A DNA stretch of 64,000 nt, taken from the IMG/VR virus record IMGVR_UViG_3300027877_000005. One strand, 5' to 3'. Both the position numbers and the translations under genes were made by a program. Below the pieces are notes generated by a model that was not told the DNA's origin, did no database searches, and saw only the letters and a list, made by a program, of their open reading frames with translations. This document shows, piece by piece, positions 4,177 to 19,054 of the stretch (position 1 is the stretch's first letter; every line of letters begins with the position of its first letter). The stretch is from a virus.

Positions 4177-4969
4177 AAACTTTATAGGACAAAAGAAGAT
4201 TATATTGGAATTAGAATCAATTTCTATAAAATTGAAAAATAATTTTGAAGGAGTAAATATTTTATTAAGAGGACAAGCTGGTTGTGGAAAAACTTTACTA
4301 GCAAAAAGTTTTCTAAATAATTTAGGTGAATATGTTTTTCAACTACCAAATAGAAACTCTAAATATGAATTACTTTGGAATAATAAAATTGCTGAATATA
4401 AATTTCATTTTGTAGATGAAATACATACTATATCACATATGGAAGTTTTATATCCAATAATGGATAGTAAAAAATATGTATTTGTATTTGCTAGTAATGA
4501 ATATGGAGATTTGCCAGATGCTTTTTTATCAAGAAATTTTGTATATTTCTTTGCTGAATATAGTTCTGAAGAAATTTCTAATATAGTTGTAGAATATGCT
4601 AAATCTAAAAATATTTTCTTGGAAGTAACTCTAGCAGATTTATTTGCTAAATATTCTAGAAACAATCCTAGAATAGTAAAGAATTTGTTTGATAGAGTTT
4701 TATTTATAATTAACAGGGGATATTACAAACTAAATTCTAGAGGAATATTATCTGCTCTAAATGATATTGGAATATATGATGGTGGATATACTGATTTAGA
4801 TATGAATTATCTACAAACTATAAAGAATTTAGGTGTAGCAAGTATTGACAGTATTTGTAGGATAATGAAAATTGATAAAAATACTATAGCAAATGAAATT
4901 GAGCCATTCTTAATATCTAAAGGACATATAGTAATAAGTCCTAGAGGGAGAAAGTTTATCAAATGGTAA
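4169..4969 (+). CDS. ruvB: RuvB-like AAA+ ATPase with C-terminal winged helix
   Basis: Walker A GQAGCGKT, Walker B FVDEIH, EVLYPIMD, SRNNPRI, C-terminal IEPFLISKGHIVISPRGRK typical of RuvB. Confidence 0.8.
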   Translation: MFRNFIGQKKIILELESISIKLKNNFEGVNILLRGQAGCGKTLLAKSFLNNLGEYVFQLPNRNSKYELLWNNKIAEYKFHFVDEIHTISHMEVLYPIMDSKKYVFVFASNEYGDLPDAFLSRNFVYFFAEYSSEEISNIVVEYAKSKNIFLEVTLADLFAKYSRNNPRIVKNLFDRVLFIINRGYYKLNSRGILSALNDIGIYDGGYTDLDMNYLQTIKNLGVASIDSICRIMKIDKNTIANEIEPFLISKGHIVISPRGRKFIKW

Positions 4970-6267
4970 CTCTTGTAAAAGATAACACAACAGTTGAATT
5001 AAATTCTTTAACATATTCATTAAAATCAAGAATAAGTGGATACTTAGCAGATGATATAGATAGAAGTCAAATGAGGCTTTGGATATTACTTAATACAAAA
5101 TCTGTATTTGCAATAACTATCTCTAAAACTTTAATGGGGAGTATGTGCATTAAAGTTGAAATGGATAGTAAGACAACATTAAAAGAACATGAAGTTAGTT
5201 TAGAAAAAATATATGAAAATGTAACTAATTTTCTTGCAGAATATCCTGATGTAAAGAAAGTTTTACTAGATGGAGAATATAAAGTATTTGCTATATGTAA
5301 CGATGCTAATGATTTTGTTCCCTATAAATTATCAGAAAGAAAGTTAGTAGAAGTAAATATAAATAATGTTTACCCTTTAGTTGATTCTATACAAAAAGTA
5401 GATGATGATTATTTTATATGTGCTTTTCCTGATATTCTCTTTTCAGTAGATAAATATACAACATTAAATCTGATTTGTATATTGGTAAAATATTATGTAG
5501 AAACTAGATTTCCAGTAATTGATAAAAATAGATTAGAAGATAAACAAATAATTAGTTTACCATCATTTACATTATGGGTTTATCATATAAAATCTTTATT
5601 GAAAGCTACTTGTAGCACAACTTATTCAGTAAAGAATTATTATGATAATATGAGTAAAATGAATATGTTAGCACATGTTCCAGCTAATAATTGGTGGATA
5701 GAAGAAAGTACACTAAAATTAGATACAAAAAGATTAATGGATTTTATTGCTAAGAAAGAAAGTAATATTATAGTAGTTAAAGATGATATTGATATGAAAG
5801 ATAATCCTGAAAAAGTAGATGAAATAGAAGAAATTGTAACACCTTATATTCCAGAATATTTCTCCCATGCTTTTATGGATGATGATTTACAAATAATGGA
5901 ATGGAGAGATTTTTTAGACGAATTCAATCGTTATGAAAGTAGTTATAAACAGTTTGATAGATATAATTTTGACATATTTGTTTCATCTATTATTATAGTT
6001 CCTACTGAAAATATTGGTAGTGTAGATAAGAACGATATAATCTTTTTAGGATTTGATGGTGGTAAATTTTATCTAACAATTAATTCTAAAGAAGAAGGTA
6101 AAGCTTTAACTTCTAATGAGGTAAACTTGAAAAATACTTTACAGGGATACTTTTGGAGAAAGTTTGGCTATGAAGTAGAAACAGTATTTGAAACTATGAC
6201 AGAAGATGATACTAAAAATTGTAATGTAAATTTATCATTCTTTCAAGATGGGTATATAGGAGAATAA
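4963..6267 (+). CDS. Hypothetical protein (434 aa)
   Basis: Long ORF overlapping the ruvB stop, in operon; no family recognised. Confidence 0.8.
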   Translation: MVTLVKDNTTVELNSLTYSLKSRISGYLADDIDRSQMRLWILLNTKSVFAITISKTLMGSMCIKVEMDSKTTLKEHEVSLEKIYENVTNFLAEYPDVKKVLLDGEYKVFAICNDANDFVPYKLSERKLVEVNINNVYPLVDSIQKVDDDYFICAFPDILFSVDKYTTLNLICILVKYYVETRFPVIDKNRLEDKQIISLPSFTLWVYHIKSLLKATCSTTYSVKNYYDNMSKMNMLAHVPANNWWIEESTLKLDTKRLMDFIAKKESNIIVVKDDIDMKDNPEKVDEIEEIVTPYIPEYFSHAFMDDDLQIMEWRDFLDEFNRYESSYKQFDRYNFDIFVSSIIIVPTENIGSVDKNDIIFLGFDGGKFYLTINSKEEGKALTSNEVNLKNTLQGYFWRKFGYEVETVFETMTEDDTKNCNVNLSFFQDGYIGE

Positions 6268-6268
6268 A

Positions 6269-6694
6269 ATGTTTTACTGCCCAAAGTGTGAATGTAAAGT
6301 ATATCCCGAAGTATCTATAAAGAATATTCAATCTGATTATTCTGTAAACTTATTTACTAACTGTGTAAATTTAGCTTTATGTGCTCTAGGAAATTTTCAA
6401 AATTTAGAGGTCACAGGATATAGATGTCCTCATTGTGGTAAAATATTTGAGCAAACTAGTTTATATATGAGAAGTCAAATTAGTAGTAAGATTGATAAAA
6501 TGGAAAAGTTTTTAATAGTTTCTGTAAAAAATAAGAAAGAGGAATATATAGATAATCATTTAGTTTTAGTAATTCCTCCAAGAATTATTCATGAAAGTGA
6601 ATTAGATTATTATAAAACATTCAATCCTTATAATGATGACAAGTATCTTATTATTAATAGACTAAATAAAATTACAGTTACTACTCCAAAATAA
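6269..6694 (+). CDS. Zinc-ribbon protein
   Basis: CPKC near the N-terminus and CPHC pair. Confidence 0.7.
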   Translation: MFYCPKCECKVYPEVSIKNIQSDYSVNLFTNCVNLALCALGNFQNLEVTGYRCPHCGKIFEQTSLYMRSQISSKIDKMEKFLIVSVKNKKEEYIDNHLVLVIPPRIIHESELDYYKTFNPYNDDKYLIINRLNKITVTTPK

Positions 6695-6704
6695 GAGGTG
6701 AAAA

Positions 6705-7700
6705 ATGGAACAACAAAGATTTTATGGAAGTGACCCCGAATACTTTATTTATATGAAAAAGAAGGAAACAGATTTTGGAACAATTCCTTTAATAGTTCCT
6801 CCAGCAGCTTTATTTGCAGATATGGGTGTAAAGTTTACCACATCTCCAAATGGTAAAAGAGTTTTGTTAGAAGAAGCTGATTATAGATTTATTGAAGATG
6901 GTGCAGCTCTAGAATTAAATTTCAAAAGACCATTGGCTAATTCTCAGGATATAAATAATATTTTATATAGTGCTTTAGATAATATTGATTATAAATTACG
7001 TCACATTAATTATGAATTGAAGATATCCAAAGATGTACTGGGATATTTTAGTGTAATTAAATACTGGAAAAATAGAGATAAATCTTTTACTGATTGTGTT
7101 AGATTTGGATGTGACCCAGACCAATTTCCTGAACTTTATATTATAAATGGTTTTGAAGAAGAAAATTGTAAAATAATTGATGCTTCAAAACATAATTATA
7201 GATATGCTGGTGGACATTTACATGTACAAAATATGTCTAAAGATAGTGATGTATATTATAGATATATGGAATTAGCACCAATTGTATTTGATTTTATTGT
7301 AGGAACAACTAATATTTTATTTCAAAGAGATAATAAAATTTTGACTCAAGAAAAAGCACGTCTAATATATTATGGAAGACCCGGCAGAATTCGTTTACAA
7401 AAATATTCTGATACAGTAAATGGTATAGAATATAGACCTCCAAGTAATCAATGGATAAATAATGGATATAATGTAAATTCAATGTTATATTCTGCTGATA
7501 TTGCAGCATCAATCATTGAAGATAATGGTGCACCTAAATTCTTTTCAGCATTTCAAGATAGAGTATTTGATATGTGGAAAGCATTAACAAATCATGATAG
7601 AGCAAAATCTAAAAATCTTCTTTTAGATAGTTTATCATGGGCATTAGATAATCACTATATTACTATCTTTCAATTGGAGAAAATCTATGGACAACTTTAA
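6705..7700 (+). CDS. phiEco32-like COOH-NH2 ligase type 2
   Basis: YGSDPEYF, EDGAALELN, FGCDPD, RYAGGHLH, YYGRPGRIR, GIEYRPPSN. Confidence 0.88.
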   Translation: MEQQRFYGSDPEYFIYMKKKETDFGTIPLIVPPAALFADMGVKFTTSPNGKRVLLEEADYRFIEDGAALELNFKRPLANSQDINNILYSALDNIDYKLRHINYELKISKDVLGYFSVIKYWKNRDKSFTDCVRFGCDPDQFPELYIINGFEEENCKIIDASKHNYRYAGGHLHVQNMSKDSDVYYRYMELAPIVFDFIVGTTNILFQRDNKILTQEKARLIYYGRPGRIRLQKYSDTVNGIEYRPPSNQWINNGYNVNSMLYSADIAASIIEDNGAPKFFSAFQDRVFDMWKALTNHDRAKSKNLLLDSLSWALDNHYITIFQLEKIYGQL

Positions 7701-8499
7701 TGATTATTTAAAACATAATAATGAAATTTTATCAAGTTTATCTTCAATTGCTTATGACGGACATGTTGGCAGTAGTTCTGTTGTATTTAGTTTTGATTAT
7801 AAACCTATTATTACAGATGTTTGTTTCGCTAGAATGTACAGTCAAATAAAAGAAGCAAAATATAAAAGAGAATTTTCATCTAATTATATTATGAGAATGC
7901 CTTATCTAAAAGAAGATAAAGATGAAACTTTACATGCAAATTATGTAGATTATCCTACATTCTTTAAGAATTTACAAGAATTAATGGAAGATACTTATAA
8001 GATAACTGTATATGATACTGATTATAGAAATATAAAGTTTGTATCAATGGAAAGTAAAATTGAATTACCTTTAGATTTAAATTATTGTTTAACCTTAGTA
8101 TTATATACAATGATTAGGGGTATAGAAGGAGAGAATAATTATTCTTTGAGAAAACGTTTTAGTAAAACAATTTTACTAAGTGGAGATATCAAAGAATATT
8201 TATATACAACTTCTAAAGAAAATAGGGGTTCACATCATAATGTAAGTGATTCTTTAGATAAAATAGCTAACCATAATAATTTACCAGAAGAATTCAAAGA
8301 GAAAATTTTTGAAAATTATGTTAAAACATTAAAGATAACCTTTGGTAAAGATGGATTAATTCATAATCCTGAATACATAAAGTATTTTGAAGGATTTTTT
8401 GATAAAAAACCTAATGGATATGGTAATGCTATGCAAACTAAATCATTTGATTATATAAATCTAACCACAAATAGAATTATACGGGAGAGTTTACAATGA
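7687..8499 (+). CDS. Hypothetical protein (270 aa)
   Basis: Coupled ORF between the ligase and the glutaminase. Confidence 0.75.
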   Translation: MDNFNDYLKHNNEILSSLSSIAYDGHVGSSSVVFSFDYKPIITDVCFARMYSQIKEAKYKREFSSNYIMRMPYLKEDKDETLHANYVDYPTFFKNLQELMEDTYKITVYDTDYRNIKFVSMESKIELPLDLNYCLTLVLYTMIRGIEGENNYSLRKRFSKTILLSGDIKEYLYTTSKENRGSHHNVSDSLDKIANHNNLPEEFKEKIFENYVKTLKITFGKDGLIHNPEYIKYFEGFFDKKPNGYGNAMQTKSFDYINLTTNRIIRESLQ

Positions 8500-9134
8500 T
8501 TAATATTGGAGTTTCTAAGATGGGAATGAACCCACCTTCATTTTATAATAGATTATTGAACTCAGCATTTAAGAGTATAAATATTAATACAAATGAATGT
8601 GCTGTAGAATATGTAAACTTTGATAGTCCATATGATTATATTCTATTTGATGGTGGAAGTGATGTTTCACCTGAATTTTATGGAGAAGAAAATATACATT
8701 CTTATATTGATAAACTTAGAGATGATTATGAAAAGAGTATATTTGAACATTATAAAGATACTACAACAAAATTTACAGGAATTTGTAGAGGACATCAATT
8801 TCTAAATGTAATGTATGGAGGAACTTTAATACAAAATCTTGGAAGTTGTTTATTATCTCATCCTGCTTATCATTATATTAGAGTAAGTGGAATGATAGAA
8901 AATAGTTTTAAGAATATTTTACCAAGAATGACTGAAGTAAATTCCATGCATCATCAAGCTGTAAATAAATTAGCAAAAAATTTATATGCAATTGCTTTTG
9001 AGCCTCATACTTCTATCATAGAAGTTTATGGTGAAATGGATGATAAAGTAAGAGCAGTACAATTTCATCCAGAATTTGCTAATTCATTTCCTTATACTAA
9101 AGAAATTTTAGCATGGTTGTTTAGGATTTTATAA
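8496..9134 (+). CDS. Peptidase C26 / class I glutamine amidotransferase (PuuD-like gamma-glutamyl hydrolase)
   Basis: DGGSDVSPEFYGE, GICRGHQFLNV (catalytic Cys), VNSMHHQAV, VQFHPE (His-x-Glu). Confidence 0.9.
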   Translation: MINIGVSKMGMNPPSFYNRLLNSAFKSININTNECAVEYVNFDSPYDYILFDGGSDVSPEFYGEENIHSYIDKLRDDYEKSIFEHYKDTTTKFTGICRGHQFLNVMYGGTLIQNLGSCLLSHPAYHYIRVSGMIENSFKNILPRMTEVNSMHHQAVNKLAKNLYAIAFEPHTSIIEVYGEMDDKVRAVQFHPEFANSFPYTKEILAWLFRIL

Positions 9135-9199
9135 TAATAAATCGTGAGGTAAGTTAGACAAATGAATACATATTAAATATTTTCTTATCGGAGGTTAAT

Positions 9200-9499
9200 A
9201 TGAAACATACTAATAAACGTTTGGAGGAAAGATTTAATATAACAATTGATAGGAAAACATTAAAGAAATTAAATGCCAATATACAAGATATAGATAATTC
9301 TATTCCTTGCATGTTTATAAAAAGGAAGAGTAATAGATTATCTGAATGGTTAATCTTAGTAAATAATAGGTGGACAATTTGTTACTATGATAAGAATAAA
9401 AATAGTATTGTCACCTTTATTGATAATAGTATCCTTGAAAAGTTTGAATTAATAGAAAGGTGTATGGAATTATGGAAAGTAAAAACAAGCCATGTTTAG
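9200..9499 (+). CDS. Hypothetical protein
   Basis: GGAGG RBS, 99-aa ORF. Confidence 0.7.
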   Translation: MKHTNKRLEERFNITIDRKTLKKLNANIQDIDNSIPCMFIKRKSNRLSEWLILVNNRWTICYYDKNKNSIVTFIDNSILEKFELIERCMELWKVKTSHV

Positions 9500-9825
9500 T
9501 CTTACAATATAATCCTACTAATGATGAAGTTATAGGAATTGAATTAACTACTACTTATAATTATTGGGAAAAAGAAGCATTTATAGATATGAATAAAAGA
9601 CAATTATTCCCATGTAAAGTAGACGGAATAAAGTATAAAGATTACAGTACATGGTTTAATAATATAAGAATGTGTCCAATTTCTGATGAAATATTAAAGA
9701 AAATAGAAAGTATAAAAAGTTCATTGAATAGTTTATCTCACTTTACTTCTGCACCGGGAAGTTCTTTTGGCAATAGTGTTTATAAAATTAATTTTCCTAA
9801 AGTTTTTTACCCAGGTTATGACTAA
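9460..9825 (+). CDS. Hypothetical protein
   Basis: 121-aa ORF in operon; start uncertain. Confidence 0.65.
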   Translation: MYGIMESKNKPCLVLQYNPTNDEVIGIELTTTYNYWEKEAFIDMNKRQLFPCKVDGIKYKDYSTWFNNIRMCPISDEILKKIESIKSSLNSLSHFTSAPGSSFGNSVYKINFPKVFYPGYD

Positions 9826-9840
9826 ATTTTGGAGGACAAA

Positions 9841-10236
9841 ATGATTGAATTCGAAAAAGCTGGTAAAATTTACCAAATTACATTCTATTTTCCTGATAAA
9901 CATAGTGAATTATATCGGCGGTATACTCATGCCAAATTATCTATCAAAATTATAAATGAAGAAAATCCTAACGATTATGCTTGGGAAACTATTGATGAAA
10001 CATTTGCTAAATGTAATATTTATTGTGATGAATTTAATAAAAATAGGGGTAGGTTTCAGGCTCTAACTAATCTATCTAATAGTGTTTTGTTTAGGGATAT
10101 GTTCAATAAATATGATAGGAAAATGATTTGGGAAAAATACTTTGAAAAGTATGGATATCCCCCAAAGAATAAAGCAATTTCCTATGAAAGATTAGTATAT
10201 CTTCTAACCCATAGAAAACATAGTCGTAAAGATTAG
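9841..10236 (+). CDS. Hypothetical protein
   Basis: GGAGG RBS before ATG 9841. Confidence 0.7.
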   Translation: MIEFEKAGKIYQITFYFPDKHSELYRRYTHAKLSIKIINEENPNDYAWETIDETFAKCNIYCDEFNKNRGRFQALTNLSNSVLFRDMFNKYDRKMIWEKYFEKYGYPPKNKAISYERLVYLLTHRKHSRKD

Positions 10237-10242
10237 TTAGAT

Positions 10243-10279
10243 AAAAAAGACTGCCCATAGTTTATTCTATGGGCAGTCT
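10243..10279 (-). terminator. 13-bp perfect hairpin with U-tract on the minus strand
   Basis: AGACTGCCCATAG-TTTATT-CTATGGGCAGTCT preceded by A6 on +. Confidence 0.55.
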
Positions 10280-10301
10280 ATCCCAAACTTTGGAGGAAAC
10301 A

Positions 10302-10487
10302 ATGTTGCCATTCAGTAAAGAATTAAAAGTTATATCTAAAATATTATTGCCTGATGAAACTTATCATATTAAATTACAAGAAGAATTAGAGAATAAAGAT
10401 AAAGTAAAAAGACACCAACCTAAATATTCTGAAGAAGATTATAAAGAATTGATTGATGATAAAATTTTAGGAATATTGGGAGGATAA
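10302..10487 (+). CDS. Hypothetical protein (61 aa)
   Basis: GGAGG RBS before ATG 10302; the track start 10269 lies inside the hairpin. Confidence 0.6.
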   Translation: MLPFSKELKVISKILLPDETYHIKLQEELENKDKVKRHQPKYSEEDYKELIDDKILGILGG

Positions 10488-10489
10488 TT

Positions 10490-10663
10490 ATGTTTACAAT
10501 AACTATTACATACTTAGTTGATGGTAATCCTGAAACATATACTGTAAAGAATGTATCTGAAATTCATACTAATTATAATAAAACTACATATAAAGTAGGT
10601 GATGATGAGTATGTATGTTATTATGTAATAAAAATTAAATGTAAACTTCAGATGGAAAACTAA
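10490..10663 (+). CDS. Small hypothetical protein (57 aa, not in ORF track)
   Basis: GGAGG RBS; MFTITITYLVDGNPETY...QMEN; fills the operon gap. Confidence 0.6.
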   Translation: MFTITITYLVDGNPETYTVKNVSEIHTNYNKTTYKVGDDEYVCYYVIKIKCKLQMEN

Positions 10664-10664
10664 T

Positions 10665-10748
10665 ATGATAAATGAATGGTTATTAATTATCATTATAATA
10701 ATCTTTACAGCAGGATATTTAGTGGGAAAGGAAAATAAAGATGACTGA
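10665..10748 (+). CDS. 27-aa single-TM peptide
   Basis: MINEWLLIIIIIIFTAGYLVGKENKDD; coupled to both neighbours. Confidence 0.5.
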   Translation: MINEWLLIIIIIIFTAGYLVGKENKDD

Positions 10749-10956
10749 TAATTCTTGGATGAGCCAATATATATTATCATTAAGAAAAGAATCTATAAAA
10801 GAATTAATGGATGAAATGTTAATGTATCATAGAATTTATATACTCAATGGGGAAAAGATGCCATCTAAAGAATTCACTCTATATAAAGAATGTCAAAGTG
10901 AATTGATAAAACGGTATGTAACTATAAAAGATATGGTGAATGGAGAAAACAAATGA
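10741..10956 (+). CDS. Hypothetical protein
   Basis: 71-aa ORF, ATGA overlap with the next gene. Confidence 0.65.
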   Translation: MTDNSWMSQYILSLRKESIKELMDEMLMYHRIYILNGEKMPSKEFTLYKECQSELIKRYVTIKDMVNGENK

Positions 10957-11732
10957 TTACAAAAAGTATAATAAATAAAGTTGGATTAGAAGCTGAGGTA
11001 TTAATTCGTAGTAAAAAGAACGAATTAGTAATTCCATCTGATTATAATTTACCCTGTGATGATTTTATAGTATTAGGTGAAATAAGAGCACCTGCAAAAG
11101 ATAATATTCCAGATACTTTATATGCTTTCATGAAAGAATTTTATATGTTTAATAAATCCCTTGAATACTTTAACTTTCATACTGATATAGAAAAAGGATG
11201 GGCTACAATTAGCCCTGAAGATTATACAAATATTTTACGTAAAATGGGTAGTAAAGAAATTGCTACTTGTAAAAATATATATAAGAATGTTGATATTCTA
11301 AAATTGACAGATGCCAATGTATCAGATGGAAAGATTTTATCCCATAATATTTCTACAGGATTACATATACACTTTTCTTCTGATATAGTTGTTCATAATA
11401 TATATCATGTTCCTGATATGTATCAAGTAAAGAATAATTTATTTGTACATTCTGCCCAAGATAAAAGATTTGATGAAGAAACTAAAATATATTCTTTACT
11501 AACAAATAATGCTATTCGTAGTATTATATCTGCTTTTGATAAAGATATCTTTCCTAAATATAATATTGAAAATGTAACTCTAAAATATCGTAAGCCGGGA
11601 TTTTATGAAGAAAAATCTTGGGGATTTGAATATAGAAGTTTACCTTTTAATCAATTAGTATATGATAATCTAACAGAAATTGTAGAATATGCTTTTAATA
11701 GGTTAGATAAGTTATCCAAAGTTCTGGTGTAA
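10953..11732 (+). CDS. Third glutamine-synthetase-fold carboxylate-amine ligase
   Basis: VGLEAEV (ExE), LGEIRA, TGLHIHFS, YRKPG, WGFEYRSLP. Confidence 0.75.
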   Translation: MITKSIINKVGLEAEVLIRSKKNELVIPSDYNLPCDDFIVLGEIRAPAKDNIPDTLYAFMKEFYMFNKSLEYFNFHTDIEKGWATISPEDYTNILRKMGSKEIATCKNIYKNVDILKLTDANVSDGKILSHNISTGLHIHFSSDIVVHNIYHVPDMYQVKNNLFVHSAQDKRFDEETKIYSLLTNNAIRSIISAFDKDIFPKYNIENVTLKYRKPGFYEEKSWGFEYRSLPFNQLVYDNLTEIVEYAFNRLDKLSKVLV

Positions 11733-11733
11733 A

Positions 11734-11934
11734 ATGAATATTTATAAAGTAACCGTAGAATATTCTAAACAATCTGGTAGAGATATAGTCTTAGCTAAAA
11801 GTGTATATGAAAATGTTAGAATGTGTTTAGTTGCTGAAAATTATATACGCATATTAGAGAAGGGTAAATTAGAGATTAAAAAGATTTCATATGAAAGAAT
11901 TTGGTCAGTAAAGATTGAAAGGGAAATAGGATGA
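11734..11934 (+). CDS. Hypothetical protein
   Basis: 66-aa ORF coupled to its neighbours. Confidence 0.6.
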   Translation: MNIYKVTVEYSKQSGRDIVLAKSVYENVRMCLVAENYIRILEKGKLEIKKISYERIWSVKIEREIG

Positions 11935-12041
11935 TAACAATTCCTTTAGAACTTCTAGTTATGTTTATTGTATTTATTATATTCTGTATAGTAATGATGA
12001 TAGTATGGTTTATATTAGCTTTAATTATAAAAAAGATATGA
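11931..12041 (+). CDS. 36-aa hydrophobic membrane peptide (not in ORF track)
   Basis: MITIPLELLVMFIVFIIFCIVMMIVWFILALIIKKI; ATGA overlaps at both ends. Confidence 0.55.
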   Translation: MITIPLELLVMFIVFIIFCIVMMIVWFILALIIKKI

Positions 12042-12202
12042 AACCATTACCTTCTAAATTAGCTTTATGGATAAATGCTTGGCTAGAATTAGTAGATGCT
12101 ATATTATGTATATTATCCTTTACATTAATAAGAACATCATTTAGTTATAGATTTATAGTATGGGATTGTATACAGGTAGCAAAGAGTAAACAAAATAGGT
12201 AA
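12038..12202 (+). CDS. Small hypothetical protein
   Basis: ATGA overlap with the upstream peptide gives start 12038 (MKPLPSKL). Confidence 0.55.
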   Translation: MKPLPSKLALWINAWLELVDAILCILSFTLIRTSFSYRFIVWDCIQVAKSKQNR

Positions 12203-12576
12203 TATTTGTATACTACAAACTCATATCTAATTTCATAATTTCTAAAATTTGTTATCGGTCAGTTTGTAAAACTTTGCTGTTACTAAAACCCCCCAAATAA
12301 ACTTTAGAAAATTCCTAAAATATGCTATAAAGGAGAATTTATATGAAATAAAATGAATAAATAAAGATAAACAATAATTATTTATCAAATTTATAAAGCA
12401 ACAAAATATACCCATAAATATAGAATGATATACCATGTATGATATATACGCACATACATGGAAGTAAAGTTTATTTACCAGTTTGTAAACTTTTACTGTT
12501 ACTATTATTGAATATATAAAGTTTATGGTTCAGATAAAGTTTAGTCAGGTATAAAGTTTATTGATAAACAAAGTTT

Positions 12577-12608
12577 AGCCAGCCGCTTGGTTCAGGGCTG
12601 GCTTTTTT
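12577..12608 (+). terminator. Intrinsic terminator
   Basis: AGCCAGCC/GGCTGGCT stem then T6. Confidence 0.75.
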
Positions 12609-12880
12609 GTTACCTGTACTCACTGCTGGGTACCTGTACCCCTGGGTCACACAGGCACAAATTCTGTAGGTACCTGTACTGTTTGTATACATGGCTAGGT
12701 ACCTGTACTCAATCTTTAAGGTACAGCCCGGCTCCCGGGTTCTAGAACCAGCCCTGAGTCAAGTCATTCGTACTGGTACAGATTTCGTGCTATACTTTTA
12801 CATAGGCAGAAAAACGCCTATCGCCTGGTTCAATCCAACCATATCGAAAATGAACCAGGGTACATATACAGGAGGTGTAT

Positions 12881-13258
12881 ATGAAAAAGAATGATAGTGT
12901 GTCCGTACCAAAGGTAGACGCTGTACAGAAAGCGGTATTCAGCACCGTATTCGCTATACTGTACAACCCTGCCAAGCCACGTGACCCAGCAATCAAATCT
13001 GATTCACCATCCAGAGATGATGTACCATGGGTTGTTATTATACCAGACCTGTCTGTTGTAGCTACTGTATTAGACAAGGATGGCGACCCAGTATGTGGTC
13101 ACGTGAACCCGCAGTACGCATCAGCATATGCTGGTCGTCTGTATAATCGCCTGGTTCAAAACCCTGAATTGCTTGATTCATATAGGAAGAACCCAGACGT
13201 GTATCCAATCAATCGTGGGTACATGGGTAAAATGATTCCTATTCAATTTGAGGTCTAG
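12881..13258 (+). CDS. Hypothetical protein
   Basis: GGAGG RBS before ATG 12881; extended -10 TGCTATACT at 12788-12796. Confidence 0.75.
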   Translation: MKKNDSVSVPKVDAVQKAVFSTVFAILYNPAKPRDPAIKSDSPSRDDVPWVVIIPDLSVVATVLDKDGDPVCGHVNPQYASAYAGRLYNRLVQNPELLDSYRKNPDVYPINRGYMGKMIPIQFEV

Positions 13259-13270
13259 ATGAGGTGAACC

Positions 13271-13399
13271 ATGATTACTAATACTAATAAACTCAAGATG
13301 AATCAGACCCTGCGGCGGGGTCAGCTTGACAATATCAAACGCCGCACCCCAAAAGCCAAAAAGACCCATAAAGGAGGTTCACATGGCAAACACAAGTAA
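13271..13399 (+). CDS. 42-aa basic peptide (not in ORF track)
   Basis: GAGGTG RBS; MITNTNKLKMNQTLRRGQLDNIKRRTPKAKKTHKGGSHGKHK. Confidence 0.55.
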   Translation: MITNTNKLKMNQTLRRGQLDNIKRRTPKAKKTHKGGSHGKHK

Positions 13400-13946
13400 T
13401 CCTACCAAAGCATCACCTACTGTACTGGTTCTGCCATCACCGCACCGCATTTCAGGTGACGTTGATGCTATGCTTGAATCAACCGTTGCAGAACGGTTCA
13501 AGACCATCATTCTGGTAAAGAATGGTGAGAAAGATACTGGTAAGGGACAGTTGGTTCTGTCTCATACTCCCGATTCAAAAGACCCCAATGTACAGGTTAG
13601 CACCTGGAATGCGGGTCTAGGTCATCTGTTACGGTTCGTGCAAGCGGGGGTCAATGCATGGACTAGCGGTGTTGGTCTATCAGGTGATGGGTCAGCGATG
13701 TACGTTGCTAATACTGCTGACACCGTGTTCAAAACCGTACCCCAGCTCAAGGGTTACGACATCGTGCTGGTTCCGAATGGTCGTGCTGGAACAGCCAAAT
13801 ACCGCATCCCGGTGCCTGAATTGGTAAGCCAAATCCTGAACCGTGCCAAGGTTATTAGCACCTGCGTTGAAGCCTTTGGTATCGCTCAGGGTAAGGAACG
13901 TACCAAAAAGGCTACTGATGCACCGCAGATTACAGCTATACTCTAA
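13383..13946 (+). CDS. Hypothetical protein (187 aa)
   Basis: AAGGAGG RBS before ATG 13383 (MANTSNP). Confidence 0.8.
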   Translation: MANTSNPTKASPTVLVLPSPHRISGDVDAMLESTVAERFKTIILVKNGEKDTGKGQLVLSHTPDSKDPNVQVSTWNAGLGHLLRFVQAGVNAWTSGVGLSGDGSAMYVANTADTVFKTVPQLKGYDIVLVPNGRAGTAKYRIPVPELVSQILNRAKVISTCVEAFGIAQGKERTKKATDAPQITAIL

Positions 13947-14030
13947 TCTGCCAGTTTCTGAACCCGGGCAGTTATACAGCTACCCGGGTTCCCATCTCCA
14001 TACCACCATTCGTTACAAAGGAGTTTTACT

Positions 14031-14282
14031 ATGCCACGAACTGCCAAACCTAAGACTGCACCAGCAGTACAGCCACAACAGCCCTTCATTACTGGCGACC
14101 CACACGCAGGTACGCCAGAGAATCAATTGGTTATATATAACTACATGATGGGTCTGACCCCTGAGCAACAGGGTATTGTACGTGGGTTACTTAAATCCAT
14201 GCAAGCGGGCGGGTACAAAAACGGTTGTCACTACCTGAAAGCGTTTTTCAATGACCGACCCACACCGGTTCAGCTAGCGTAA
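14031..14282 (+). CDS. Hypothetical protein (83 aa)
   Basis: AAGGAG RBS. Confidence 0.7.
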   Translation: MPRTAKPKTAPAVQPQQPFITGDPHAGTPENQLVIYNYMMGLTPEQQGIVRGLLKSMQAGGYKNGCHYLKAFFNDRPTPVQLA

Positions 14283-14296
14283 GCACCGGTACATCC

Positions 14297-14366
14297 AACT
14301 GGGTTGGGTTCAGAGGCTACCACACCGCAACGAACCCACGATCCGGGTTCAGAGCCTAACCCAGTT
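14297..14366 (+). ncRNA. Putative structured RNA element (unclassified)
   Basis: 15-bp outer stem with two G-U pairs on + enclosing a GAACCC/GGGTTC hairpin. Confidence 0.35.
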
Positions 14367-14450
14367 ACCCCTGCACCAACGTTACATATATAGGAGACAA
14401 CAACATGACGTGAACCATGGGTGGTATACCTTATAGCCACTAATTGAATT

Positions 14451-14483
14451 GACCCCCGCCTGGGACAGCGGGGGCATTTTTTT
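14451..14483 (+). terminator. Intrinsic terminator
   Basis: CCCCCGC/GCGGGGG stem then T7. Confidence 0.8.
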
Positions 14484-14554
14484 ACTTGTACCCAGGAGAT
14501 GGGTACCTGTACTGGGTTCCGGGCGCCGGGCAGGGGATGGGTACCAGAATGCCT

Positions 14555-14580
14555 GAGTACATGCACAAGTGCATGTACTC
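14555..14580. repeat. Perfect 12-bp inverted repeat GAGTACATGCAC-AA-GTGCATGTACTC
   Basis: Read directly; upstream of promoter 14646. Confidence 0.85.
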
Positions 14581-14645
14581 ACGATTTCTGGTTCATGTAT
14601 AAGTACAAGCACCAGATGATTGTAAAAATTGGTCTAAAAATGCCA

Positions 14646-14674
14646 TTGACGTGGTACGGTATCCCTGGTATAAT
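14646..14674 (+). promoter_or_regulatory. sigma70/SigA promoter
   Basis: TTGACG, 17 bp, TG-G-TATAAT. Confidence 0.8.
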
Positions 14675-14722
14675 TGCTCTGTAAGAGTTAAAATCCAACC
14701 TGAACCAGCAAAGGAGATTGAA

Positions 14723-15442
14723 ATGAAAACCAAGTTACATGCACCAGTTGATGAAGTTGACCCACTAGCAGAACGGAACCAGCTAGTAGATACACTCATC
14801 AATACATCGTTTCAGCTATCCGCTACGGGTACGATATTCACCATTGGTACAGAATCGAATCCCAGTTGGGAGGACATCTTATTCGTTCTGAACCGCCTGT
14901 ACACTACCGGTTACGCTGAAGAGTTCAAACTTCTCCCATTCAATGTTGAACCAGCAATACTTGTATCAGGCTTGTCAAAGGAAGTAGTGGCATGGCTGGT
15001 TCCGCTCATCATTCAGGCGATTGATAGGAAAGTGATGGGTTCAGAGATTGATATCTTAGCCCCCAATAACAAAAACCTGGTACGTTTGGCTGATGTCCTT
15101 GGGTGGTATTGGTATCACACGTTACATGGACCCAAGCCTGTGGTCAATCAGTTAGTGAGCATTGAGCGGCACCATAAGGTGGTTCAGAACGCTTCTCTGA
15201 GTTGCCCATTGTGCTACCACCAGTTCATACCAGCACCCGGTTATAAGACCCAATCTGAAAAGGCATTTGCATTTGCCAAGTGGCTACCGACCCACCTGGT
15301 TCATACCCACATGTTTACTGATACAAGTAAAACAAGCGTTGCCAAGTGTACTTGTGGTACGTGTTCAGGTAAAATCACAAAATACACAGGCGACCCAGTT
15401 AAGAACCGCAAGCTGTTACAGAAGAAAGGTGGTACAAAATGA
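14723..15442 (+). CDS. Hypothetical protein with C-terminal Cys/His zinc-binding motifs
   Basis: AAGGAG RBS before ATG 14723; CPLC...HLVHTH and CTCGTC. Confidence 0.75.
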   Translation: MKTKLHAPVDEVDPLAERNQLVDTLINTSFQLSATGTIFTIGTESNPSWEDILFVLNRLYTTGYAEEFKLLPFNVEPAILVSGLSKEVVAWLVPLIIQAIDRKVMGSEIDILAPNNKNLVRLADVLGWYWYHTLHGPKPVVNQLVSIERHHKVVQNASLSCPLCYHQFIPAPGYKTQSEKAFAFAKWLPTHLVHTHMFTDTSKTSVAKCTCGTCSGKITKYTGDPVKNRKLLQKKGGTK

Positions 15443-15639
15443 GAAAGGTGATTGTGTATACAAAAACCTTGACTGTGTTACTTGTAATCGTAGATAGGTA
15501 CAGGAATGGTAAGTGTGTCAGTCATGCCTATCCAAATCCGTACCCAGCATCAGTTCAACGCTTGATGAAGTTACTTGAGAACCGTGATTCTGAGGTCAGT
15601 GGAGCAAGGGGGGTACTTATACTCACATTCAGTTTCTGA
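15439..15639 (+). CDS. Hypothetical protein (66 aa)
   Basis: ATGA overlap; its stop codon lies inside motif A. Confidence 0.7.
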   Translation: MRKVIVYTKTLTVLLVIVDRYRNGKCVSHAYPNPYPASVQRLMKLLENRDSEVSGARGVLILTFSF

Positions 15640-15656
15640 ACCGTAGCAGTTACATA

Positions 15657-15687
15657 AACCCTGGTGTATGAACCAGGGTTCTTTTTT
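15657..15687 (+). terminator. Intrinsic terminator
   Basis: AACCCTGG/CCAGGGTT stem then C and T6. Confidence 0.75.
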
Positions 15688-15766
15688 GCCTGGGAACCAA
15701 GGCTGGGTACCTGTACTCACCCTCCCTGGGTCAACCTGAAATGAGTTTGTGGGTACCAGAGACCCT

Positions 15767-15790
15767 GAGTACAAGTATATACTTGTACTC
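15767..15790. repeat. Perfect 24-bp palindrome GAGTACAAGTATATACTTGTACTC
   Basis: Read directly; ends 24 bp before the -35 of promoter 15814. Confidence 0.85.
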
Positions 15791-15813
15791 AAGATTCTTG
15801 GGTCGATTGCCTC

Positions 15814-15842
15814 TTGACAACCTGGAACCAGTATGCTAAAAT
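15814..15842 (+). promoter_or_regulatory. sigma70/SigA promoter
   Basis: TTGACA, 17 bp, TG-C-TAAAAT. Confidence 0.8.
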
Positions 15843-15853
15843 AAAGAGAAAAA

Positions 15854-16444
15854 ATGGAGACTAACATGATAATTTGGACATTAATTGGCATATTTATACA
15901 GTGGGTCGGTAAACTCTTCAAGAGGGCAGACGTACTCTTTATAGGGTACTACCTAGCTGGGTCAGGTAAGACACGCTCATTACCAGTATATGTACACGAA
16001 GCTGTATTGAATGAGCTTGGGTGGTTACGTCAATACTGTCATCCTGATACATATATAGTCCACCGGTTTGATAATCTAGTGTTATTCCATACCATAGGAA
16101 AGTGTTGGGTCAAGAAAGACGGCGACCTTATCTATATCAAGGATAGGTACATGTTCTACCCACTTTGTCCCGATAGTGATACTCATTTCAGCGATTGTGG
16201 GTGCAAACCTGAATGGAAAGTATACTCAAGTCTAACCAAGCATATGTATATCACACCACAACGATATACTGATAAATTATTGAATTCAAGATTTAGATAC
16301 TTACACTTCCACCGAACCATGGGTAGATTCATATCTGTTACTGCTGATATATGGGGTATCAAGTACGAAATCAATGATGAGTTTTGGGTCAACAAGGGTA
16401 AGCCATTCGATGTGTACTCTGAGATACCTATATATCATATCTGA
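15854..16444 (+). CDS. Hypothetical protein (196 aa)
   Basis: ORF directly after promoter 15814; no family recognised. Confidence 0.7.
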   Translation: METNMIIWTLIGIFIQWVGKLFKRADVLFIGYYLAGSGKTRSLPVYVHEAVLNELGWLRQYCHPDTYIVHRFDNLVLFHTIGKCWVKKDGDLIYIKDRYMFYPLCPDSDTHFSDCGCKPEWKVYSSLTKHMYITPQRYTDKLLNSRFRYLHFHRTMGRFISVTADIWGIKYEINDEFWVNKGKPFDVYSEIPIYHI

Positions 16445-16473
16445 TACCAGTTTGTATGAGGGTGCAGTTACAT

Positions 16474-16503
16474 AATGTGGGTTGGTGTGAACCGACCCAC
16501 ATT
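16474..16503 (+). other. 13-bp RNA hairpin with GNRA (GUGA) loop, no U-tract
   Basis: AATGTGGGTTGGT-GTGA-ACCGACCCACATT, one U-G pair on +. Confidence 0.6.
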
Positions 16504-16633
16504 ACAGCCCCTGAATACGCTCATTGATACATGTACTCATCCTCTCTGGTGCTAATCATAATATGAGTCAATAGGTACCTGTACCATTAAAATAGAGTAC
16601 AGGAACTCATGCTTGCTGGTACAAAATTGCTTA

Positions 16634-16661
16634 TTGACAAATCTGTCCCAATCACTATAAT
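16634..16661 (+). promoter_or_regulatory. sigma70/SigA promoter
   Basis: TTGACA, 16 bp, TATAAT. Confidence 0.75.
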
Positions 16662-16684
16662 GTATAGTTAAGGAGAATAAAATC

Positions 16685-16954
16685 ATGAATAATAACCCGT
16701 TTTATTGTGTTGTACATCCTACTACATCCTTTATTAATTCCACTGGATTCCAGGCAGTGGATGATGTAGATGCTATCCAGAAAATGCTTGATGATATGAA
16801 AAGATTCAATCACAAGTATGCCATGCTGTACCGCTTGAATGGTACACGTTATCCATTCTTTGTATGTGTAATAAATTGCCATTTAGTTCCTGGTACAGCA
16901 GATGTATTCAATGACAATGTGACAGGAAAGGTGGTGCAGTTCCATCAAATGTAA
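16685..16954 (+). CDS. Hypothetical protein (89 aa)
   Basis: AAGGAG RBS after promoter 16634. Confidence 0.75.
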   Translation: MNNNPFYCVVHPTTSFINSTGFQAVDDVDAIQKMLDDMKRFNHKYAMLYRLNGTRYPFFVCVINCHLVPGTADVFNDNVTGKVVQFHQM

Positions 16955-16985
16955 ATACCAGTTTGTATTGGGGTGCGGTTATAAG

Positions 16986-17012
16986 AATGGGGTGGTTCCA
17001 TACCACCCCATT
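16986..17012 (+). other. 11-bp hairpin after motif A, no U-tract
   Basis: AATGGGGTGGT-TCCAT-ACCACCCCATT. Confidence 0.55.
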
Positions 17013-17332
17013 ACTATCCCCAAGATGAGAGGTAATAGGTACCTGTACCTGTTTGCCAGTTTGTAATGCGTTGCTGTTATGAGAGGCTCTGGTACGTTAG
17101 AATGAGAAAATATGGGTACCTGTACCTGTGAGTTTGTAATCCGAACCTGTTATGGTACTGCTGTATACATGTATGAGTTTGCACATAGGTACTTGTACCA
17201 AAAATCATGAGTACATGTACTCAGGGTATCTGGTTCCACCAGTTTGTAATCCGTTCCTGTTATGGGGCTTGGGTACATGTACCAGCAAAGCTGAGTACAT
17301 GTACTCTATTTACTTGGTATAGATGCTTAAAT

Positions 17333-17376
17333 AAAAAAAACCGGACAATCCCGGTGAATTAGACCAGGATTGTCCG
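17333..17376 (-). terminator. Intrinsic terminator (distal of a tandem pair)
   Basis: 14-bp stem with a G-U pair only on the minus strand; A8 on + at 17333-17340. Confidence 0.75.
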
Positions 17377-17387
17377 ATTTGTTAAAT

Positions 17388-17421
17388 AAAAAAAATCCCC
17401 TACCATTTCTGGTAGGGGATT
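17388..17421 (-). terminator. Intrinsic terminator with GAAA tetraloop
   Basis: AATCCCCTACCA/TGGTAGGGGATT 12-bp stem; A-run on +. Confidence 0.8.
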
Positions 17422-17605
17422 ATTCTGATTGATATATGAAAGTGAATGGTAGAATGGAATATACACGCTCATTCCTGACCATTTCACTCTCAATTGTCGA
17501 ATATAATCTTGGTGAAATTACGATATGCCAAGATTTTACAACGATGGTAATAGAATGGCTACATCTAAAATGTTTACCATCCCTAAAATCAAAGATGATT
17601 TTCAT
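17420..17605 (-). CDS. Hypothetical protein (61 aa)
   Basis: AAGGGAGT RBS before ATG 17605 (MKIIFDFRDGK). Confidence 0.6.
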   Translation of the reverse strand: MKIIFDFRDGKHFRCSHSITIVVKSWHIVISPRLYSTIESEMVRNERVYSILPFTFIYQSE

Positions 17606-17623
17606 TTTCACTCCCTTTAAAAT

Positions 17624-17730
17624 CCCTATCACTCACATGAGCGGATTAACCTGATTCAGATTAAACTACATGGTAGTATGCATCCTACCAATTAACCGTT
17701 TTAGTGAATCCGCTCATGTGAATGATAGGG
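17624..17730 (-). ncRNA. 24-bp RNA stem enclosing a 59-nt branched loop
   Basis: Arms 17624-17647 and 17707-17730; the single mismatch is a U-G pair only on the minus strand. Confidence 0.5.
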
Positions 17731-17736
17731 CATGGT

Positions 17737-17927
17737 AGGGGAGTGATTACTCACTCCCCTTTGACAAAGATCCGGATCGCCCTAAGCGTTATCCCATGCA
17801 ATCTTTACAATCTTGATGAAATTGTAAACAAAGATTGCAATCAGGATAATTTTGCATGCAAGTAAAATATCCATTTTACACTCCCTTTGGGATGTATCCT
17901 AGGGGAGTGATTACTCACTCCCCTAGG
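17737..17927 (-). repeat. Two identical hairpins AGGGGAGTGA-(GUAA)-TCACTCCCCT
   Basis: 17737-17760 and 17898-17927, each just downstream of a minus-strand stop; the loop is GNRA on minus. Confidence 0.85.
17782..17874 (-). CDS. 30-aa membrane peptide (not in ORF track)
   Basis: AAGGGAGT RBS; MDILLACKIILIAIFVYNFIKIVKIAWDNA. Confidence 0.6.
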   Translation of the reverse strand: MDILLACKIILIAIFVYNFIKIVKIAWDNA

Positions 17928-17939
17928 TTTACCTAAGAG

Positions 17940-18545
17940 CTAATCAATCCGCTCAATCTTAGCACGATTAGCAAAATTGATTTTGCCCTCAGGAGCATGC
18001 CCTTCACGCTTTGGAAGGGCGGTAATCCTTTGAGCTCTTATCGCATATACATGGGATTGAGCTTTAATCTCACTAAAACTCAATTCCACGTCATGGGGTG
18101 TATCCTTACCACCCGTAGAAAATGCGTGTATGGTTAAGCTCATATCGGTAAGATTTAATTCCTTGATTACTTTCTCAAGGATTAATCCCCTACCGCTATT
18201 TACTATCGCAAGCGGTTTACCTAAGAACATACCGCAAGCGACATACCCTACCATGCACAAGAGCTCTTGCATCGGATTTTCAAATTTACCCGTACGCATT
18301 AATCCTAGGTAATTTGGGCAATCACGATGCCCGCCCACTGGCGTAAAATTTGCGCCCACTTTCACCCCTATGGATTTACCATCCTTTGGGGTTACTTTAA
18401 GCGTGAACGCATAGCCTACTGGACTATTCCCGATAATTTGGGTAATCCAGTTACTAATATTTACGCCCTTTTCATCCTTAAAGCTTTCTAAGAATGAAAT
18501 AATTTGGGCGATAGCAACAAAACAAGCTAAAAATATGCTATCCAT
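17940..18545 (-). CDS. Hypothetical protein (201 aa) with hydrophobic N-terminus
   Basis: AAGGGAGT RBS, intact ORF. Confidence 0.75.
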   Translation of the reverse strand: MDSIFLACFVAIAQIISFLESFKDEKGVNISNWITQIIGNSPVGYAFTLKVTPKDGKSIGVKVGANFTPVGGHRDCPNYLGLMRTGKFENPMQELLCMVGYVACGMFLGKPLAIVNSGRGLILEKVIKELNLTDMSLTIHAFSTGGKDTPHDVELSFSEIKAQSHVYAIRAQRITALPKREGHAPEGKINFANRAKIERID

Positions 18546-18768
18546 GAGATTACTCCCTTAAAGCGTTACATATGTCCTGTCAAAGACAGGTTGATAAAAT
18601 TCTCCCTCCACCCGCCCCCGACATGTTCGCCTTGCCCCCACACGTGACACGATAGAATTGGGTTATATAGTGGTGTTTCGAGTATATATCAGGCTATTGC
18701 CGCTTGCTACCCTGAATTTTTAATGTTCTGTCTAACTGTCTTAATAATAGCATTAACTTGTGAAGATT

Positions 18769-18866
18769 GTATTAGAATTTTGTTAACATTTTGCCTTGTA
18801 GTATTAGAAATTTGTTAACAAAACCCCTGTTTTGTTCTAATTATTCTAGTCGTGTTAATTAGAACA
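18769..18866. repeat. 20-bp direct repeat pair plus 11-bp inverted repeat in a non-coding gap
   Basis: GTATTAGAAWTTTGTTAACA at 18769 and 18801; TGTTCTAATTA/TAATTAGAACA at 18833/18856. Confidence 0.75.
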
Positions 18867-18922
18867 CTTTGTCAGACAACTTTTACTTCAGTTTACTTAA
18901 TAGTTTAGGTTACTTAACTATT

Positions 18923-19054
18923 CTAATTCAGACCAGGATTGCCTGGATTACTACTGTGTGCTGGCTGATACTGTGTGGCACACAGTATCCATACCCCCCT
19001 ATTTGGATAAAAATTGTCCGGTTTGCGCTCATTACCCGTGTACCAGTACCCCAC
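18923..19054 (-). CDS. Possible 43-aa peptide
   Basis: GGGGG RBS then GTG; MGYWYTGNERKPDNFYPN... Confidence 0.3.
   Translation of the reverse strand: MGYWYTGNERKPDNFYPNRGVWILCATQYQPAHSSNPGNPGLN

Follow-up and report, generated by a model that had tools for sequence, protein, structure and literature searches.

Oriented junction elements that may double as gene-exchange points in a GC-rich island of small phage genes

The 64,000-nucleotide (nt) stretch of viral DNA analyzed in this study (IMG/VR record IMGVR_UViG_3300027877_000005; hereafter the window, or W) contains a GC-rich island of small plus-strand genes (about 12550–17330), whose junctions are built from a recurrent set of elements: an oriented motif A, a motif B, hairpins, and predicted promoters. 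On balance, and with moderate confidence, we regard these elements as conserved punctuation of transcription units that also serves as patches for gene exchange, in the manner of the promoter-early stem-loop (PeSL) cassettes of T4-type phages (Arbiol et al. 2010, PMC2839356; Comeau et al. 2014, PMC4122927). The island, with a GC content of 44–48% when read in windows at 13–16 kb, is the middle one of three composition zones, being preceded by an AT-rich plus-strand operon of ligase-type enzymes and small open reading frames (ORFs) (1–12200, GC 25–27%) and followed by a 47-kb minus-strand block of lysis, tail, head, and glycan genes (GC 30–41%). To judge from its 1714-amino-acid (aa) tape measure protein, portal, and terminase, the window derives from a long-tailed phage.

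Motif A (CAGTTTSTR-N8-CNGTTAY) is a bipartite element of 24 bp, with boxes 1 and 2 being direct repeats of each other. It matches the window nine times against 0.03 expected, every copy lying on the plus strand (A1 to A9 at 12260, 12479, 13952, 15630, 16448, 16959, 17057, 17130, and 17240), and over 14 non-redundant loci the coding (plus) strand carries all 67 copies (0.06 expected), the minus strand being free of them. At gene ends, A either stands 0–5 nt past the stop codon or contains the stop itself. It was not found in 17.3–64 kb of the window, and in a further 10 kb upstream, a tRNA-bearing stretch seen in the relative L021, neither A nor B was found save at one junction before the ligase operon. 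Motif B (GTACNTGTAC) occupies 14 sites (104, 131, 12630, 12670, 12699, 14503, 15707, 16575, 17039, 17116, 17189, 17211, 17273, and 17295), which count as 18 matches (0.35 expected) since a palindromic site is scored once per strand; its asymmetric CCTG form is confined to the plus strand. Of two further elements, the C box (TAAAGTTTA) has five of its seven copies inside 12298–12560 and one in the junction at 54, and the 16-bp motif D (GACCAGGATTGYCYGR; three copies against 0.1 expected) flanks an inverted segment, with an inverted pair at 17341–17356 and 17362–17377 and a third copy at 18931–18946. The excesses of A and B bear out the first-pass annotation of this DNA, which had described A and B as repeated boundary elements recurring without genes in the order A, A, terminator, and three B at 12260–12710 and B, A, B, A, B, B, A, B, B at 17039–17304; both orders proved exact.

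Junctions, about 220–440 bp long, number six in 12.2–17.3 kb and one at 1–213, with none in the 47-kb minus-strand block. The order that the first-pass annotation had taken as general, namely gene, stop codon, A, hairpin, B, promoter, ribosome-binding site (RBS), and next gene, is present in full at 15630–15854 and 16448–16685 and recurs with a degenerate A at 14283–14722, but does not hold at 13946–14031, where only A and a hairpin are found. Module 3 (14283–14722) consists of the degenerate A (14362–14385), a terminator (14453–14480), B (14503–14512), a long two-tier hairpin (14540–14595, z −6.96), and a predicted promoter, TTGACG-17-TGgTATAAT (14646–14674). Module 4 (15630–15853) begins with A4 (15630–15653), which contains the TGA stop of a 66-aa gene, and continues with a terminator (15657–15686), B (15707–15716), a long hairpin (15752–15805), and a predicted promoter, TTGACA-17-TGcTAAAAT (15814–15842). 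In module 5 (16445–16684), A5 (16448–16471) is followed by a hairpin without a T run (16475–16503), B-type boxes (16527–16608), and a predicted consensus promoter matching at 12 of 12 positions (16634–16661). The four top promoter matches of the scan (11–12 of 12) lie at 14646, 15814, 16634, and 11536, three of them with a TGn extension; these best matches agree in position with the promoters of the first-pass annotation. Terminator-like hairpins number 12 in the window against 4.9 expected, among them hairpins with T runs at 12581, 14453, and 15657. The terminator, extended −10, and leader of module 3 align across five lineages, and the stems differ in sequence yet stay paired; promoter and terminator activity is thus predicted from consensus and conservation. 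Upstream of the module 3 terminator, a mini-ORF and a conserved ACCTTATAGCCAC stretch were also observed (14400–14440).

The B boxes are parts of a larger, two-tier hairpin unit, in which a lower stem (GGTACCAG paired with CTGGT(W)C) is separated by an internal loop of about 6 bases per side from an upper stem having TGAGTAC/GTACTCA at its base and a tip variable in length and sequence. The long hairpins upstream of the predicted promoters have folding z scores of −4 to −9. In four lineages, the tips of orthologous copies are wholly different in sequence and still fully complementary, and in the distant relative L024 the upper-stem base itself is altered with retention of pairing. This compensation, together with the variable arm spacing, favors a folded strand over a simple dimer site on duplex DNA. 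Compensation is also seen at motif A: in the gene-end copies, the 8-nt spacer is the 5′ arm of a hairpin that holds box 2 in its loop, and among the A3 orthologues, a small sample, 86% of cells are paired and two pairs are changed on both sides. The stacked A copies of the right-hand cluster described below are without hairpins of the gene-end type and have a B box 3–9 nt upstream of each. In phage T7, RNase III processing hairpins stand between the early genes; the two-tier hairpins resemble these in being long and intergenic, in having an upper and a lower stem parted by an internal loop, and in their position at early-gene borders, but differ in lying upstream of promoters and downstream of terminators, where they would be transcribed by readthrough only.

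Identical or related contigs came from freshwater and wetland metagenomes, and with a ligase-operon protein and the 239-aa island protein as queries about ten related lineages were recovered (B, C, D, E, G, and H, together with contigs numbered L0xx, of which L009 is lineage B); run comparisons rest on assembled (Logan) contigs, and stretches lacking cover in runs X7, X9, and X10 carry no weight in them. The island DNA matched none of 50,697 phage records, and neither a relative nor the window itself turned up in three scans of IMG/VR viral contigs. The GC-rich island, the motif set, and its orientation are common to all of the about ten lineages, the island having a GC content of 44–50% in every one, between zones of 25% and 35%; in B, C, D, and E, as in L024–L043, the island comes with both gene-less clusters and with the motif order found here.

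Against this constant framework, the genes vary with distance. The nearest lineage, B (41–78% protein identity), has the eight island genes in identical content and order, whereas in the deeper relatives only the 187-, 83-, and 239-aa genes are universal (three of eight) and the others vary by slot. The first slot holds a 125-aa and a 42-aa gene in W, B, C, G, and H; in lineage E an unrelated 71-aa gene replaces the 125-aa gene, and in lineage D there is no gene, a 42-aa-like frame being still detectable in both D and E. The slot between the A4 and A6 homologues is filled by a 196-aa and an 89-aa gene in W and B, by the 196-aa gene alone in L028, and by an unrelated 117-aa gene sitting exactly between the two A homologues in C, and is vacant in E, where the gene after the 239-aa gene runs directly into the right cluster. 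Lineage B is without module 5, its 196- and 89-aa homologues lying 20 bp apart (L009 11730–11750). The most telling pair, L032 and L034, is 95.4% identical over 3.7 kb up to just past a B element and then unrelated over 620 and 463 nt, one strain carrying a full hairpin–promoter–gene unit and the other a homologue of the 117-aa gene; each of the swapped genes ends in a stop codon, A, and a hairpin, after which 84% similarity resumes. Insertions, deletions, and replacements between relatives thus end in junction modules, although only their left ends are sharp. The proposal in the first-pass annotation of an array for gaining and losing genes is accordingly upheld for accessory genes swapped at junctions among the deeper relatives, but not for the nearest one, whose collinearity is the outcome that had been named as contrary to it.

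Variation was also seen at finer scales. In lower-depth contigs of the source sample, base differences cluster in or near junction elements (12485–12534, 14568, and 17009–17050) and also at 15893–15961, inside the 196-aa gene, and at 18729–18796. To the left of the island, lineage B has a further 2.3 kb or so of small AT-rich ORFs, variable even among population variants; ORFs of 84, 75, and 57 aa are present or absent among the variants L008, L009, L012, and L013 (about 5400–6200 in L009 coordinates), in a stretch with no A or B motifs.

These observations may be combined as follows. The punctuation elements would delimit host-polymerase transcription units, which together form the island of small accessory genes; a complete unit border would comprise the stop codon, A (often with its own hairpin), an intrinsic terminator, a B box, the two-tier GGTACCAG/TGAGTAC hairpin, and a promoter of the form TTGACA / TGnTATAAT with a strong ribosome site. 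The 100–250 bp of junction sequence, repeated in one orientation, would supply homology patches, and the genes between the patches would be exchanged, lost, or gained by related phages. The left cluster would be a block of about 400 nt, constant in its geometry, that closes the AT-rich operon ahead of the first promoter of the island, and the right cluster an expanded junction, upstream of a 201-aa operon in three lineages and deprived here of its downstream gene by inversion. The mosaic boundaries are in register with the modules; that recombination produced the mosaics, and that a protein binds A or B, we infer.

Several points weigh against this reading. The full collinearity of the nearest relative means that turnover is slow. 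The L032/L034 swap is sharp at its left end only, the right side fading from a diverged 52-aa gene to 84% identity, and a single clean crossover at a repeat is therefore not demonstrated. Selection for recombinants that respect transcription units could yield the same in-register pattern without the repeats being its cause. All the promoter and terminator calls are consensus matches backed by conservation. In B, C, and E, three or four right-cluster A copies lie downstream of a strong T-run terminator, a position into which a purely RNA-level role of A fits poorly. Finally, the base composition of the island exceeds what the junction elements explain: the GC content of 45–48% is accompanied by a four- to five-fold excess of GTAC and of GGTTC/GAACC in coding sequence. 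GTAC occurs at 16.5 per kb in the island versus 1.2 and 3.0 per kb on its two sides, and GGTTC and GAACC are about 5-fold enriched, with the excess reaching into coding sequence. A part of the GAACC excess is due to the start context GTGAACCATG, which recurs at several small island genes (13262–13273 and 14405–14420 in the window; 10722 and 10855 in L018).

The arrangement of variable genes, each ending in a stop codon and A, often with a hairpin, recalls the ORF-attC units of integrons, in which a recombination-prone element likewise stands directly behind each exchangeable gene in arrays of one orientation, and A, which ends in GTTAY, might by this analogy be the crossover site of a dedicated recombinase. 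We regard this as highly improbable: Pfam and PHROG scans found no integrase or recombinase family in or beside the island, the sharp L032/L034 boundary falls after a B element and not at a fixed base within A, and the boxes of A are direct and not inverted repeats, so that A does not take an attC-like fold. Most of the cassettes here, moreover, have their own promoter, unlike integron cassettes, and their breakpoints do not share one base.

In two clusters the elements are stacked without genes. Neither contains an ORF with a ribosome site in the window, in agreement with the first-pass annotation. The left cluster is a conserved non-coding block (12203–12720) that starts with a leader (12203–12259), A1 (12260–12283), and an inverted C box (12298–12306) within an AT-rich stretch, continues with a covarying hairpin (12433–12461), A2 (12479–12502), and four direct C boxes (12465–12560), and ends with an intrinsic terminator (12581–12606) and three B boxes. 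In five lineages it aligns as one continuous block with long invariant runs, the small hairpin covaries, and the terminator stem differs in sequence and pairs in all five. The A1–A2 spacing is exactly 219 bp in W, B, C, D, and E and 206–222 bp elsewhere. Folded as a single RNA, the block reaches a z score of only −2.08, and the alignment fold consists of invariant long-range C-box pairing with little covariation. In lineage B, a 54-aa hydrophobic ORF runs through A1 with its stop inside A1 (L009 7397–7561); the homologous frame is broken by two in-frame stops in the window (12005–12283) and by a 2-nt insertion in lineage D, and conservation of the A1 region therefore acts at the DNA level.

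The right cluster (16959–17304) opens with A6 and its hairpin (16959–17012), followed by units of about 75–110 bp that contain B boxes and A7 to A9, the B boxes at 17211 and 17295 being palindromic. Four or five A copies interleaved with B are present in every lineage covering this region, and positionally equivalent units match at 72–81% between lineages (BLAST), as in W 17184–17306 versus L009 12250–12372 (81%) and W 17211–17427 versus L020 4226–4435 (78%), which shows that the array was inherited and not re-created. Tandem Repeats Finder left the cluster uncalled, its units being too diverged, and a reading of the cluster as one coding frame was rejected since the units do not amount to whole numbers of codons and the ORFs switch frame. 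Because both clusters are present in every lineage covering them, they predate the lineage splits and have been maintained.

These results bear on the suggestion in the first-pass annotation that gene deletion turned the ORF-less units at both ends into empty cassettes. In its favor, a 52-aa membrane-type gene with a good ribosome site lies between right-cluster A copies in D, G, and H (L018 11072–11230), and the empty units of lineage E, with a GGAG-like site, an ATG about 9 nt on, and an immediate stop, resemble vestiges of gene starts; right-cluster units can evidently hold genes, and may once have done so. In a contig from the source run, moreover, a rearranged join from 16623 to 16978 skips 354 bases and thereby omits promoter 5 and the 89-aa gene, although its depth is low (12 versus 82) and its anchor weak, the shorter side having 30 letters. 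Random scars, however, would not persist in positional orthology at 72–81% identity, with a fixed left A–A spacing, through 30–60% protein divergence, and the left cluster is one continuous block without gene-sized gap units. We accordingly consider deletion scars improbable, and the comparison does not support the suggestion; as judged by their conservation, the gene-less clusters appear to be maintained functional non-coding regions. Directly before the first right-cluster A, lineages D, E, and G also have a conserved 29-aa membrane-type peptide with the motif GYWTAKNS (L018 10862–10955, L020 3819–3908, and L034 3442–3533), which is not in the window.

The apparent emptiness at 17.0–17.3 kb is explained in part by an inversion. 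In B, C, and D, the operon of the 201-aa gene lies on the plus strand behind the right cluster and an AT-rich leader (L009 12400–13800), whereas in W and E it is inverted and a terminator pair adjoins the cluster. In the window, this minus-strand mini-operon occupies 17420–18946 (201-aa gene, 17940–18545), and two back-to-back terminator hairpins (17335–17430), the first of which is the motif D inverted pair, close the plus-strand block and the inverted operon. A simple single exchange between motif D copies does not reproduce both arrangements. Two further rearranged joins were noted here, one in the source run (17402–17732), skipping 329 bases at a depth of 7, and one in run X9 (17774–18513), going back 740 bases within the 201-aa operon on a weak anchor or at low depth.

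Two roles may be considered for motif A within the punctuation reading. It may be a transcript signal, presented by a hairpin and controlling 3′ end formation or readthrough, which fits because A is oriented, linked to stops, placed just ahead of terminators, and provided with a compensated hairpin; or it may be a stoperator-like roadblock on DNA, which fits because copies lie behind strong terminators in B, C, and E and some lack hairpins. Carried to its full extent, the second option becomes an alternative explanation of the whole system, in which A is the DNA site of a repressor-like protein that halts polymerase one-way, B is the matching promoter operator, and the stacked A copies are a fail-safe stop ahead of the convergent late genes. 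The stoperators of cluster A mycobacteriophages bind L5 gp71-type repressors (PMC9283540, PMC6550527), and L5-type stoperators share the relevant properties of A (PMC9283540), which is asymmetric and bipartite, co-oriented with transcription (67 to 0), and located 0–5 nt after stops or over them; they too are asymmetric sites in short intergenic spaces, with orientation locked to transcription and a related class of sites at promoters. The A copies beyond terminators, where transcripts should already have ended, also favor a role at the DNA level. On the other hand, stoperators are 13-mers distributed genome-wide in temperate phages with a known repressor, whereas A is a 24-bp element restricted to about 6 kb and one junction, and its variable 8-nt spacer is often a hairpin arm with compensatory changes that a duplex DNA site does not need. 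No repressor, helix-turn-helix (HTH) protein, or integrase was recognized near the island in Pfam and PHROG scans of ten proteins. We therefore take the stoperator system to be an unlikely alternative. Other identities of motif A were considered and rejected: a promoter would have a −10 without the conserved last T, a 19-nt spacer, and a transcript running straight into a terminator; an array like those of clustered regularly interspaced short palindromic repeats (CRISPR) is at odds with non-identical repeats and irregular spacing; and a target of a trans-acting guide RNA would need a complementary copy of either box, of which none occurs elsewhere save an 8-mer at 12214.

The left cluster might alternatively mark the physical end of the packaged DNA, as a terminal repeat or a cos or pac start, with the island entering the cell first as in T7, T5, and SPO1 and the clusters acting as packaging or injection signals. 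Contigs of three lineages from at least three studies share one homologous starting base, W 12213, located 47 nt upstream of A1 (L016, L017 from two samples, L026, and a 169-nt contig of run X7 covering 12213–12381); the strongest host-type promoter matches of the window lie in the island, and many assemblies break inside it. At least ten contigs, however, read through 12213, a 64-kb contig from lineage C ends not at this base but 405 nt farther inward, contig ends can also arise where co-occurring strains diverge, and the evidence comes from assembled contigs, which cannot show a pile-up of read starts. A genome end at this position thus seems to us rather unlikely. A more elaborate version, to which we assign a low probability, would make the stretch an entry device: packaged DNA would start at 12213, the 400-nt block and the GTAC-dense island would enter first, and A would be a distributed nut-like signal read by the 83-, 187-, or 239-aa protein. 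With box 2 of A displayed in a hairpin loop before each terminator, the terminators would be opened in sequence and early expression thereby timed, and the odd base composition would be kept since the whole stretch is a binding or entry substrate.

The first-pass annotation had named an iteron origin, besides an injection or packaging signal, as an alternative for the right cluster. Replication could be assigned to one or both clusters, the A, B, and C boxes being then protein-binding repeats beside an AT-rich unwinding stretch. The presence of direct repeats of three kinds, the very AT-rich A1–A2 interval with four C boxes at 17–18 bp steps, the approximately 400 bp of AT-rich DNA adjoining the right cluster in B, C, and D, and a cumulative GC skew peak at about 17 kb would all suit an origin. 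The skew peak, however, coincides with the switch of coding strand, which suffices to explain it; A and B also occur singly at ordinary gene junctions; the right-cluster A spacing is irregular (56–110 bp); and the replication genes are far upstream, with no initiator gene adjoining among the proteins scanned against Pfam and PHROG. We consider an origin very unlikely.

As for the remaining features of the island, transcription would begin at a promoter P1 read from the sequence as TTCGTA-18 nt-TGcTATACT (12767–12796), followed by a 5′ leader hairpin (12824–12859) that is kept with changed letters in L009 (8085–8118). The genes, all on the plus strand, are in order the accessory 125-aa (12881–13258) and 42-aa (13271–13399) genes, the core 187-aa gene (13383–13946; behind it A3 with its hairpin, 13952–13992, box 2 as CAGTTAT in the loop), the core 83-aa gene (14031–14282), the core 239-aa gene with a Cys-x2-Cys motif (14723–15442), and the accessory 66-aa (15439–15639), 196-aa (15854–16444; W, B, and L028 only), and 89-aa (16685–16954; W and B only) genes, the three core genes being present in all lineages. 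Within the 239-aa gene, an A-like sequence (15219–15248; L009 10499; L016 2999) encodes a conserved Cys-x2-Cys-Tyr-His-Gln-Phe; it could be a chance match or a self-regulatory site. That the island genes are orphans, as had been supposed, agrees with Pfam and PHROG scans of all eight and of two neighbours, which gave no match; searches of the Protein Data Bank (PDB) by sequence with the island proteins also found nothing. Structural models of the 239-aa (predicted local distance difference test, pLDDT, 71.5) and 187-aa (pLDDT 88.7) proteins gave no convincing fold match against PDB, BFVD, and AlphaFold clusters or in a wide VIA search, the best match (Z 5.0) being a generic helical bundle, and the 83-aa protein had only weak HTH-like neighbours in Atlas searches, from a poor model. 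Outside the island, junction module 0 (1–213, plus strand) precedes the AT-rich ligase operon and contains a terminator hairpin (1–30), a C box (TAAAGTTTA; 54–62), two B sites (104–113 and 131–140), and a predicted promoter with TTGACA and an extended −10 (185–213); its motif A lies just upstream of the window, behind a ribonucleotide reductase gene, as seen in the relative L001 (2267). Upstream of that reductase gene, intergenic stretches resembling tRNA clusters and a masked run of N were noted in lineage B (L021 700–5200). Rfam and tRNA scans over the window found nothing.

The junctions described above are worth comparing with the PeSLs. In both systems, small orphan genes are separated by copies of a unit that joins a terminator stem-loop to a strong sigma-70-type promoter, the activity of which is here predicted; every gene has a promoter and a terminator of its own, the copies are concentrated in a plastic, orphan-rich region, and differences between related phages end in the repeats (PMC2839356, PMC4122927). 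A further trait of PeSL cassettes is the excision of mini-circles by recombination between adjacent repeats. In contrast, the phages studied here, which are long-tailed and uncultured, belong to another group, in which no T4 core genes were seen; at about 220–440 bp, their junction is much longer than a PeSL, with its about 100 bp; it includes an oriented 24-bp stop-abutting element and a two-tier GTAC hairpin upstream of the promoter, both absent from PeSLs; conserved gene-less stacks are found at both ends; and its sequence, based on GTAC and CAGTTT motifs, has no relation to PeSLs as published (PMC2839356). Functionally, then, the junctions behave like PeSLs, whereas by sequence and by taxonomy they do not. 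To our knowledge, T4-type phages are the only ones in which experiments have described repeated terminator–promoter junctions that let small genes be swapped.

The present findings would thus extend the junction-swap principle to a clade of long-tailed freshwater phages that is uncultured and unrelated to the T4 type, and add two elements without a described counterpart, the oriented 24-bp stop-locked signal and the two-tier GTAC hairpin upstream of promoters, which together with the fixed geometry of the gene-less stacks and the clade-wide deviant composition are particular to this system. They also suggest that gene-less stacks of junction elements can be conserved functional DNA and not debris. 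With its natural series of filled, swapped, and empty slots, the clade would bear on whether such repeats cause gene exchanges or mark those that have survived.

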